Part shown: one piece after another, positions 1 to 3,000 of the stretch | Layout: every line of letters begins with the position of its first letter | Position numbering within the stretch: position 1 is the stretch's first letter | Virus record (IMG/VR): IMGVR_UViG_646311923_000012 | DNA from: a virus | Taxonomy: Duplodnaviria; Heunggongvirae; Uroviricota; Caudoviricetes | DNA length: 64,000 bases | Strand: one strand, 5' to 3' | Program-made: the position numbers

Positions 1-3000
1 CGGTCGGAAATAATCCCACGGCGTGCCCAGGCGCTGAAATGGCTCGCCCTGTCCTGTGACGTCCAGGTGGCTGAGCTGTCACGCCATTTCGAACCGTAAT
101 ATCCGATACCCGGAATGTCCGGGTCTTCTTCCGGTTTGTTCGTCGGCACATTCACCCCGTTCTCATCGGTCATGAACGGTACGAAATGGATATTCTTTTC
201 CGTTTTGTTTTTATAGCTGCCGTACACCGTCTGGTACGTGGATTCGTTCTTCTGCTTCCAGAAATACGTCGTATCTCCACATATCCAGGGAACACCGCCA
301 GCAGAGCCACCGACGCACTGACCTGCCATATCCGCCAGGTCTGCACGGAATTTATCAACCAGCGCACCAAACTGTGCTGCGTGATTTGCCGGCGTACCGC
401 CAAAATCAAATTCCCCCTGCATCCACACCACGGCAAACAGCACATTTTTCGGATTCTTCTTCAGTGCTGCTTTTGTTCGACCGATAAGGTCCTTATACAG
501 CGGCTTGTCCACACCCCAGCGGGTTGAATTCTCCGAGGCACCACTCGCGTCACTGTATGTGCCATCGGCTCCGGTGGTGAACGCTGAACCACCACGACAG
601 CACGGAACCAGCAGAATGCCCGCATTCGCCGGTATAAACGGCAGCAATTTTTTGGCGATATGCAGCCCTTGCCCCACGGTTCCGTACTGCCCCTTTGACA
701 GGTCCGCTTTCGGATGGTTAAGGCGGCTCATGTCCTGCACATCATGCAGACAATGGTCCGCCGGAATGATGTCGTTATATTTACAGGCGACACCGCCCGG
801 TGTCACCGTACTGCGACGCGCCAGCTGCTTAATGCGCGGGTCCGGACGGTCATATGTCTCCGGCAGCGGAAGGCCTTCACCATATGCCATGCTGTTTGAC
901 TGCCCCGCCAGAACCACAACAAAGTAATACTCCGGGTCTCTGGTGGCGCTGATTACTGTGCCTTCTCCATCCGACGGCTTCACCAACACAGGTGTGGTGA
1001 CATCACCTTCCGCCGCAATGGCCTGCATCAGAGTATAAGGCGTGATGGCCACCGGGCTGCCAAATGGCTGCCACCCCTCCTTCAGTTTTTGTGTCAGCTT
1101 TTCCGCAAGATCTGACGGCGACGCCGCCCTGACAACATCATAATGTTTAATCGACATCGAATTTCTCCCGTGTACAGGAACAGAGTTAAAAAGCCGGAAC
1201 CGGAATCAAATTACAGGATGGCCATCTGCCAGTGGCTGGTCGTAAAAAAAGGCCACGCCATGCGCAGCCGGAAATAAAGGGATAACGATGATAGTTTGAG
1301 AAAAACAGAAACAACACTTTTGTGGCAAAGCATGGTGCCGGGTGCCTCCCGGTGAATTCAGTATCAGCACCTGAATCCGCGATTATCCCATATACCTGGT
1401 TGCTGATCGCCCCTCCGCACAGGGGGATTCACCATGCAGAAGTGTTTTTAATAAACAGCAAACAAAAAAATCAAGCATTATGCAGGCTGTTTCTTTTTAT
1501 CACCGGCCACAGCAATACCACAATGCCGCAGACCAGCACCCCATCCGCCAGCACCGACATGATTCTGCTGGTGAAATCCACCATCACCACCAGAAACAGC
1601 AGGAGTGCAGCCACAGCCAGGCGCAGTTTTACCGTCACAGGTGATTCTCCAGACGAAGACCCAGAACACCGGCAATCTCTTCCAGCACCTTGCGCTCTTC
1701 CGGCTCAATTTCGCCGTCTGCCTCCGCAATGGCCACCGCCACATCCAGCACATCTTCCGCTTCACGCGTATCGTGTTTCACATCCTCAATCTCGCGTAAC
1801 GCGGCACGACGACCAATTTTAAAATTGGTATCCAGCTGACCGATAATAGTTGCGCTAATCGCATTAATTTCCGAGGTAAACGCAGACAACGCAGGCTGAT
1901 TACGTAAGACCTGTTCGATCTTCGCTTTCTCGGATGCCTCGCATTCACCATCTGCATAGGCCACCAGGTATGCAGCGTTAATCACCGCCTGTGCCAGATC
2001 GCGTTTCTCAAACTTTTTAATTTCCGCTGCCGCTCTGCGGGTTTTCTTTTTGAAGATTCCAAACATCGTGACGTTCCTTTGGGTGGGTGAGCCAACGCCC
2101 GGGAGCGATCTGCCCACAGAGAAAGTCACACTGACCACTCCGTAAGCTCACCCCCGAAAGGCTCTGTGGTTGATATGCGCCGGGCGTGGCGCAGATACAA
2201 AAAAGGCCCGCCGAAGCGAGCCTGGAAAATAAGTGTGGCGCGTTGTAGTGGAGTCGAACCACTGACCGATTGCTTAGAAGGCAATTGCTCTGTCCGACTG
2301 AGCTAACAACGCATGATGCTGATAATGGACCGCCATCGGGGACTTGAACCCCGCGCAGCCAGCTTCGAAGGCTGGCGCTCTGTCCCGATGAGCTAATGGC
2401 GGTATGTGATATGGTGGCCCTTGCTGGATTTGAACCAGCGACCTGGCGATTATGAGTCGCTCGCTCTCACCACTGAGCTAAAGGGCCGAGCCAAAAAATA
2501 ATAATCAGATGAAAATCAATAATCAAGCCCTTGCCTGGATACATATCTGTCTGGCGGGAAGCCATAATAGCGGTGAAATACAGAAATAAAGTAGGACCTG
2601 CTTGAATAACCGCATTTTTCTGCTATAGCCTGTCCATATCCATGCCGGGAACATAACATATTTACAGCAACACGCATCCGCTCTTCCAGCAACAAGCGAC
2701 TGAACATGCCCCCTTCATTTTTCAGTTTTGTCTTTAACAAACTCTCACTCATATGCAACTGTAGAGCAATCGCACCAAGCGTCCAGCTTGCTGATATATC
2801 TGTCTGAATTATCGCCCTGACTTTGGCACTTATGCTGGATAAACATCCACTTAAAAACAATGACATCCGTTCATCTGTTTCAAACAGAGACAGGCAGGCC
2901 ATCATAAGAAACATATCCGTGGCCTCTCCGGAAAATCCCTGGCTGGTAATTAAAGCCGCAGCCAACGCAGGATTGTTGGGTTCCAGCAACAGGTAAAGCG

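Follow-up and report, generated by a model that had tools for sequence, protein, structure and literature searches.

Several described systems resemble the locus reported here, a tciA-tciB gene pair with a structured leader RNA that lies between phage transfer RNA (tRNA) genes and nanS in two prophages of the viral sequence IMGVR_UViG_646311923_000012 (64 kb of DNA, hereafter the window; all features of the finding lie on its minus strand). The nearest in gene content is tciA-tciB-tciC of phage P1 (terB/upf69.4/upf69.6 in P7), where a TerB protein of ~142 amino acids (aa) is followed by a DUF3927 protein of ~54 aa, the stop and start codons abut or overlap, and the genes adjoin phage tRNA genes, as they do here. 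The tci names were assigned "by homology", with no phenotype behind them. All three genes were scored non-essential by CRISPR interference in P1, their transcripts were reported in the transcriptome of P1vir infection, and papers on P1-like and D6-like phage-plasmids regard the tci genes as morons of unknown role, for which resistances would need testing. The P1 genes differ from those of the window in belonging to the C1-controlled ban operon rather than to a putative Q-dependent late region, and in having another upstream hairpin without the leader described below. Nor did tblastn find anything near the cassette that resembles the 35-aa open reading frame (ORF) of TciC; a small RNA (sRNA) follows tciB instead.

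TciA is also related to TerB of the terZABCDEF cluster (Klebsiella structure 2JXU), with which it has in common the Pfam family, the length class, an all-alpha fold and a C-terminal ADGxxxxxE motif, and to which it can be aligned over residues 14-137, but the identity is distant, and TciA has no TerC, TerD, TerE or TerZ partners, being paired with a tiny membrane protein. According to published work, TerB switches between cytoplasm and membrane, and the TerB domains of the Dionysus, Bunzi and Shango defence systems are proposed to act in membrane surveillance. Like tciAB, these systems combine a TerB-like protein with a membrane protein (DinB and the pore-forming DinC in Dionysus), whereas tciAB has neither a PADLOC match nor a MAEBL, pore-forming-toxin, helicase or ATPase partner, and is encoded by phages, virulent ones included, rather than in defence islands. 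In position, the counterpart of the cassette is stx2AB of the Shiga toxin (Stx) phage 933W. As to the leader, long helices that bury the ribosome-binding site occur in other leaders of phage genes that sequester the Shine-Dalgarno (SD) sequence, such as the RNase III-processed leader of lambda N, and in translational riboswitches. The tciA leader would resemble them in its helix over the ribosome-binding site and in its possible alternative pairings, and it differs in that neither by sequence nor by covariance model does it match any of the 4,227 Rfam families.

A known gene pair in the stx slot

Compared base by base, the window and 933W are homologous across the tRNAs and the hairpin of the terminator, to position 2188 of the window, and again from position 1455. 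Between these breakpoints the window has 732 bp with tciA and tciB, versus 1,369 bp with stx2A and stx2B in 933W, and phage phi296 has merely ~80 bp at the same position. stxAB and tciAB are alternative payloads in one slot between common flanks, with sharp boundaries. The insertion point, between the argO terminator and STnc100/nanS, is identical, the flanks match those of the window at 94.7% and 74-83% identity, and both payloads are expected to rely on late read-through transcription, but the cargoes themselves are unrelated. The sRNA that flanks both of them belongs to the STnc100 family (104.7 bits in the window, the gathering score being 47, and 207.7 bits downstream of stx2B in 933W) and, in the window, lies in the right flank common to Stx phages; AsxR, which comes after STnc100 in 933W, is absent from the window. 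The left break in homology lies within the first hairpin (P0) of the leader, which makes the leader part of the cassette rather than of the common scaffold, and tciAB, unlike stx2AB, brings a structured leader of its own. The swap of stxAB and tciAB is useful for thinking about the origin of Stx phages by cassette exchange.

A preliminary description of this DNA had already placed a TerB-like gene in the stx position, within a scaffold common to both prophages and in the company of no StxA- or StxB-like ORF. This is borne out by the breakpoints in 933W, by the second tRNA-to-nanS block (50344-51923), which repeats the first at 96.1% identity over 1,584 bp, and by the lack of any tblastn match at E ≤ 1 to Stx2A or Stx2B of 933W in the whole 64-kb window. 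The TerB gene had also been taken for the only ORF between the tRNAs and nanS, which is incorrect: the interval holds a second, RefSeq-annotated ORF of 55 aa with a DUF3927 domain (tciB), as well as the leader RNA and the STnc100 sRNA. Of the proposed order Q, pR'/tR', tRNAs, cargo, nanS, the part from the tRNAs through the TerB gene to nanS stands, but an AraC/YdeO-like gene and a small ORF lie between the Q-like gene and the tRNAs, so that the scaffold is not exactly the one described. We regard it as almost certain that what fills the stx slot here is the tciA/tciB cassette already known.

The pair itself is routine, already annotated, and not a new element. Its DNA is identical to a cassette annotated in Escherichia coli O26:H11 11368 and in many O26, O103, O45, O111, O145 and O157 genomes, where the RefSeq products are WP_000466957.1, labelled "tellurite resistance TerB family protein", and WP_000216636.1, labelled "DUF3927 family protein". 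Phage records use the names tciA/tciB after phage P1, while that of P7 says terB, citing the O157 prophages CP-933R and CP-933P. As a two-gene block at ≥80% query coverage, the pair is present in 801 of 5,426 complete E. coli genomes (about one in seven), at a median of 4 places per carrier and a maximum of 10. The earlier statement that no described function could be matched is thus right insofar as we found no experimentally described function in the literature, but the genes are annotated, named, and assigned to PHROG 632 and 1470. This is a common cassette, often multicopy in E. coli and also present in P1-, P2- and N4-like phages and jumbo phages, whose name is borrowed from a distant homologue.

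Searches with tblastn found TciA-like genes in 130 phage records. TciA of the window shares 42% identity with P1 TciA (E = 8e-24), and TciB 58% with the core of P1 TciB (query residues 21-51). In lambdoid phages the pair lies between Q and the holin gene, which directly follows it in Fostie and in a Pantoea prophage. In P1 and P7 it belongs to the ban operon, flagged as C1-controlled in the P1 record, and is found between phage tRNAs; in P2/186-like prophages it lies in an early operon, between fil and a replication gene; in the virulent N4-like phage Pollock (Schitoviridae) it occupies the early/middle region; and in an Erwinia jumbo phage it stands amid tRNA genes. All of these settings are units transcribed in the lytic phase. 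Adjacency of tciA-tciB to phage tRNAs was observed in four unrelated types (lambdoid, JLK-2012, P1/P7 and the Erwinia jumbo phage), the identities of the tRNAs being different, and the homology between the window and JLK-2012 begins within the 3' end of the last tRNA.

tciA is a genuine protein-coding gene under strong purifying selection. Relative to phage JLK-2012 the synonymous and non-synonymous divergences are dS 0.42 and dN 0.017 (dN/dS 0.04), and among 22 haplotypes the codon variants are 53 synonymous versus 9 non-synonymous. Intact copies were found in 46 of 46 related loci for tciA and in 45 of 46 for tciB; these loci, drawn from viral contigs, are near-identical E. coli prophages only, which served the selection test and hold little diversity. 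One related locus (L028) has a stop codon within tciB. The assignment of TciA to the TerB family, which the preliminary description had made from the sequence alone, is confirmed by Pfam TerB PF05099 (60.2 bits, cutoff 24.4, residues 26-138), and the protein also matches Klebsiella TerB (2JXU_A, E = 4.4e-8, residues 14-137) and, over its full length, PHROG 632 (233.5 bits). The AlphaFold2 model is an all-alpha bundle of 8 helices with a predicted local distance difference test score (pLDDT) of 87.8, for which the best Foldseek matches are the TerB-like structures 2H5N (template modelling score 0.55-0.62) and 2OU3, with weak E-values. The protein carries two copies of an ADGxxxxxE motif (ADGECEASE at 38-46 and ADGEIEPEE at 116-124), whose residues D39, G40, E46, D117, G118 and E124 vary little or not at all among 24 homologues; these acidic motifs would be candidate metal-binding sites. 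The N-terminus is basic (net charge +7 over residues 1-22) and the remaining body acidic (net -13). A longer tciA ORF of 167 aa, starting at a GTG at position 2138, was rejected, given that RefSeq and all homologues begin with MFG, that an AAAGGA Shine-Dalgarno sequence lies 8 nt ahead of the ATG, and that the upstream part is non-coding in other loci.

TciB matches Pfam DUF3927 (62.3 bits) and PHROG 1470 (104.4 bits), is strongly hydrophobic (grand average of hydropathy 1.43) with two hydrophobic spans, and has a conserved core, VDFTS..MS.L.DG..V....WP, with two acidic residues within the spans. Over long distances it is the better conserved partner: versus the N4-like phage Pollock, identity is 53% for TciB and only 28% for TciA. 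The GTG start of tciB overlaps the stop codon of tciA as GTGA, and stop and start overlap or abut in 7 unrelated phages, the six others having overlaps or gaps of 0-3 nt. Database proteins P0004, P0066 and P0121 are TerB-DUF3927 fusions or DUF3927 extensions that arose through small frameshifts. In Pseudomonas phage AF, an unannotated 73-aa ORF with one hydrophobic span has a start that overlaps the stop of the TerB-like gene (L089 1932-2153), and for this reason small membrane partners may extend beyond DUF3927.

The leader RNA of tciA

The most interesting item of the locus is the leader RNA, which comprises ~130 nt from the terminator to the tciA start codon and is better conserved than tciA itself, with ~85% nucleotide identity among loci whose TciA share only 43% protein identity. 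A pattern scan of viral contigs recovered many more copies, and a TciA ORF follows each copy that has enough downstream DNA; a scan of genome contigs with a 16-base pattern gave nearly all chance matches and a single useful locus (L153, Enterobacter pulveris). In-frame stops upstream of the ATG occur in 26 of 34 leaders and reading frames vary between sequence types, so the leader is non-coding, and the idea that it encodes an N-terminal extension of TciA was rejected.

Its structure starts with a hairpin, P0 (GCGCC/GGCGC), and comprises a helix P1 (CCACAGAG/CUCUGUGG), a second hairpin P2, and a helix of 15 pairs (CCUUUCAGGGGUGAGCC/GGCUCACCC.CUAAAAGG, with segments CCUUU and GGUGAGCC) that includes the Shine-Dalgarno sequence AAAGGA and is hereafter called the SD helix. 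P1 is 100% paired, and three of its pairs are changed on both sides, in two separate lineages. Across 34 distinct leaders, pairing amounts to 96.5% for structure S1 (P1 plus a pseudoknot), in which both sides have changed at 8 pairs, a level reached by 0 of 500 shuffles, and to 98.7% for the structure that contains the SD helix, as against 31-51% in slid controls; RNAalifold independently selects the SD helix. When diverged members are added, 17 of 26 pairs are changed on both sides (5.4 in shuffles), and within the SD helix 9 of 15 with 99.1% paired, figures that are somewhat inflated because this alignment (A5) was fitted to the covariance model. The G-U pairs are compatible with the sense strand only. 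P1 and the SD helix have no bases in common and could therefore form together as a pseudoknot. A pseudoknot helix P3 (UUCAGGGGUGA/UCAUUCCUGAG), which overlaps bases of the SD helix, was retained only as a possible alternative conformer, as the SD helix has the broader covariation.

In the window, the covariance model has exactly two matches (2064-2194 and 51388-51518, start codons included). Against Rfam 15 (4,227 families), the leader (2067-2194) gave nothing at E ≤ 0.1 over 6 kb, and chance-level matches only at E ≤ 10 over 201 nt; from these searches the family looks undescribed. The same model detects diverged, full-length members ahead of other genes: one before the P22_AR_N antirepressor-like gene that lies between R and Rz, within the lysis cassette, of 933W (43.9 bits), one before that gene in the lysis cassette of O26 11368 (72.7 bits), and one before a 260-aa gene of unknown kind in phage Fostie. 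As the leader also stands before an antirepressor-like gene in 933W, its study could reveal a control step shared by accessory genes of Stx phages. With compensatory changes, a buried ribosome-binding site and no place in Rfam, the leader is a practical handle on the locus and easy to test. P1, P7 and one metagenomic phage share another hairpin upstream of tciA (CACCGGGnnGCACyCGG; L005 ~2430-2460, L091, L095), which replaces the leader family there.

A proposed working of the cassette and its rivals

The cassette consists of the structured leader, tciA and tciB; the tRNAs and their terminator precede it, and STnc100, nanS and the lysis genes follow. Its transcription would come mainly from Q-modified polymerase that reads through the tRNA terminator after prophage induction, as for stx2; synteny with 933W points to this, together with the fact that no sigma-70-like site was found between 2200 and 2066, i.e., ahead of tciA. 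The leader is predicted from covariation to fold such that the 15-pair helix hides the Shine-Dalgarno sequence, so that TciA, and through coupling TciB, would by default go untranslated until processing, a ligand or some further signal lifts the block. TciA would then lie on the inner face of the membrane through its basic N-terminal helix, with a cation bound by the two ADGxxxxxE motifs, and TciB would be its membrane partner or effector. Our best guess is that the pair serves the phage at the inner membrane during lytic growth, since in P1-like, P2-like, N4-like and jumbo phages its genes belong to operons of the lytic phase, and it might shield the infected cell from superinfection or membrane-depolarising attack until programmed lysis. 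This functional sketch is tentative, and we would sooner expect it to need revision than to hold; for the identity of the cassette and the sketch taken as one statement, our confidence is evenly divided.

Several observations weigh against this proposal. The two genes do not always travel together: in phage 434 the same position before nanS is held by TciB with no TciA (L092 1638-2870), while Vibrio phage K481 and one metagenomic phage have TciA but no detectable TciB. (The neighbours of TciB in phage 434 are two membrane proteins, a multi-span one of 247 aa and one of 62 aa, and Pfam matched neither.) AlphaFold2 applied to a naturally fused TciA-TciB chain (P0004, a frameshift product) modelled the TciB hairpin at pLDDT ~50 with no confident docking, which leaves a physical interaction unsupported and says nothing either way. 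Late transcription is deduced from synteny and a promoter scan, and the Q-like gene is of the DUF1133 type, unlike that of 933W, with the AraC-like gene intervening before the tRNAs. Besides the inflation mentioned above, the covariation is drawn from a handful of sequence types. PADLOC returned no defence-system match, only PDC-S48 at 14.5 bits (E = 0.0035) without partner genes, and our literature search found no functional study of tciA, tciB or DUF3927, which makes the functional part an inference.

The preliminary description had called the gene a moron. As morons of lysogenic conversion, TciA and TciB would be made in the lysogen and, as their names suggest, help it to withstand tellurite, oxidative stress, pore-forming colicins or infection by other phages. 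Membership in the TerB family speaks for this, as do the tellurite, colicin and phage resistance reported for the ter cluster, the location of the cassette in a cargo slot that elsewhere holds a virulence factor, the retention of several copies per genome, and a promoter-like site in front of the tRNAs (2498-2526), which could allow some read-through in the lysogen. However, strictly virulent N4-like and jumbo phages, which form no lysogens, carry the same pair, which makes a benefit to the lysogen doubtful, and tciA lies behind a terminator, without a promoter-like site of its own and with its Shine-Dalgarno sequence buried in a helix. The genes near the cassette are tRNAs and DUF3927, nanS, AraC-like and Q-like genes, with no terC, terD, terE or terZ among them, so that the name "tellurite resistance" rests on homology only. 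Shiga-toxigenic E. coli O165:H25 strains with 19-21 prophages and without ter genes are tellurite-sensitive, a comparison of ter genes and prophage count alone, and the tciAB phage JLK-2012 comes from O55:H7, a lineage reported to be without the tellurite island. From these sequence comparisons we do not think that tciAB confers tellurite resistance on the lysogen, and we consider the lysogenic reading as a whole unlikely; the lytic-phase contexts, the non-lysogenic carriers and the lack of ter genes nearby favour a function in the infected cell.

Such a function could also be counter-defence, with TciA as a decoy or inhibitor of host TerB membrane surveillance (the ter Phi phenotype, Dionysus, Bunzi, Shango) and TciB as its anchor. 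Validated defence systems contain TerB domains as sensor-like components, the pair occurs in early or late lytic operons of many unrelated phages, virulent ones included, and the phage copies are single-domain and have no effector partners. Yet an interaction with host TerB proteins has no supporting evidence, many hosts of these phages have no ter operons, and it is TciB, rather than the TerB domain, that is most conserved; the dispensability of P1 tciABC on K-12 is uninformative both ways. We judge counter-defence improbable, and more so a role in lysis timing, by which a membrane pair would tune holin triggering or the proton-motive force just before lysis. The latter would fit the location in lambdoid phages, where the lysis cassette follows immediately (in Fostie and the Pantoea prophage the holin comes right after the pair), the small, two-span character of TciB, which it has in common with holins and antiholins, and the same leader family ahead of the ant-like gene within the lysis cassette of 933W. 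It does not fit the P1, P2-like, N4-like and jumbo phages, where the pair lies away from lysis genes, and a Pfam search found no similarity of TciB to known holin families. That the pair is a decaying or untranslated remnant without function is hardly conceivable: some database copies are frameshifted or fused, and P1-like phage-plasmids frequently have no such operon, but the purifying selection on tciA, the intact copies in related loci, and the conservation in five phage groups, together with that of the regulatory leader, argue otherwise.

Returning to the proposal of a leader-controlled membrane pair used in lytic growth, one may speculate further that an undescribed family of leader RNAs hides the ribosome-binding site, is switched by a ligand, processing or another signal, and thus gates a number of accessory genes, unrelated to one another, in lambdoid late regions, that of 933W included (tciA, the ant-like gene, the gene in Fostie), and that the pair of a TerB-fold and a two-span protein is a minimal membrane-guard or counter-defence device in the lytic growth of at least five unrelated phage groups. 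This wider idea seems to us doubtful, though worth stating.

Neighbouring features and the second prophage

Table 1. Features of the locus, of its repeat in the second prophage, and of related loci (window coordinates unless a locus is named)
Feature	Coordinates	Strand	Evidence or remark
Q-like late regulator	3803..4345	-	Pfam DUF1133, weaker Phage_antitermQ match
Small ORF	between Q-like and AraC/YdeO-like genes	-	
AraC/YdeO-like regulator	2516..3229	-	Pfam HTH_AraC and HTH_18; NCBIfam YdeO 108 bits, under its cutoff
tRNA-Met(CAT); tRNA-Ile (ileZ-like) in RefSeq and 933W annotation	2412..2487	-	ARAGORN; Rfam tRNA 72.5 bits; RefSeq; 933W ileZ
tRNA-Arg(TCG), argN-like	2326..2402	-	ARAGORN; Rfam; 933W
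tRNA-Arg(TCT), argO-like	2236..2312	-	ARAGORN; Rfam; 933W
Intrinsic-terminator-like hairpin (2204-2223) and T-run after the tRNAs	2195..2223	-	8-bp stem, 6 GC pairs; common to 933W
Structured 5' leader RNA of tciA	2067..2194	-	Covariance model 139.9 bits, no Rfam family
tciA, 143-aa TerB-family protein (WP_000466957.1)	1635..2066	-	Pfam, PHROG, PDB match, AlphaFold2, dN/dS, RefSeq
tciB, 55-aa DUF3927 protein (WP_000216636.1)	1471..1638	-	Pfam, PHROG, junction sequence, hydropathy, RefSeq
STnc100-family sRNA	1294..1466	-	Rfam RF02076
Terminator-like hairpin (1251-1269) and T-run upstream of nanS	1244..1269	-	
nanS-p, 5' part (DUF1737 and SASA esterase)	1..1157	-	Pfam and sequence; gene extends beyond window start
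tciA leader RNA, second copy	51391-51518 (51388..51518 with ATG)	-	Covariance model 139.9 bits
tciA, second copy	50959..51390	-	Single amino-acid change, H142Y
tciB, second copy	50795..50962	-	
STnc100-family sRNA, second copy	50618..50790	-	Rfam 100.8 bits
Leader-family members outside the window (933W, O26 11368, Fostie)	L004 7222-7357; L001 10871-11010; L007 5981-6094		
tRNA-adjacent tciA-tciB pairs	window 2236-2487; L002 4792-5025; L005 1616-3276; L088 886-3277		

The hairpin after the tRNAs has a counterpart in 933W that is annotated as a terminator upstream of stx, and in other loci a terminator of unlike sequence occupies the same place. Upstream of the tRNAs, the AraC-family regulator is a protein of 237 aa that is nearest to YdeO and GadX yet falls under both cutoffs, and it is present in both prophages (second copy at 51841-52554); we presume that it may belong to the prophage regulators of acid resistance and type III secretion in enterohaemorrhagic E. 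coli.

In the second prophage, the middle tRNA-Arg(TCG) (region 51637-51736) was called neither by ARAGORN nor by the Rfam tRNA model. There, nanS (48632-50480, minus strand) is broken into two overlapping ORFs (474 aa and 155 aa), suggestive of a frameshift. The STnc100 family, found downstream of stx2B in 933W, sits upstream of tciA in the Pantoea prophage (L097 3675-3873). A 2026 preprint (Storz lab) names TerB as a conserved neighbour of the PasA/PasC sRNAs, which may be counterparts either of the tRNA trailer and terminator or of the leader, and describes STnc100 as related to PasD sRNAs.

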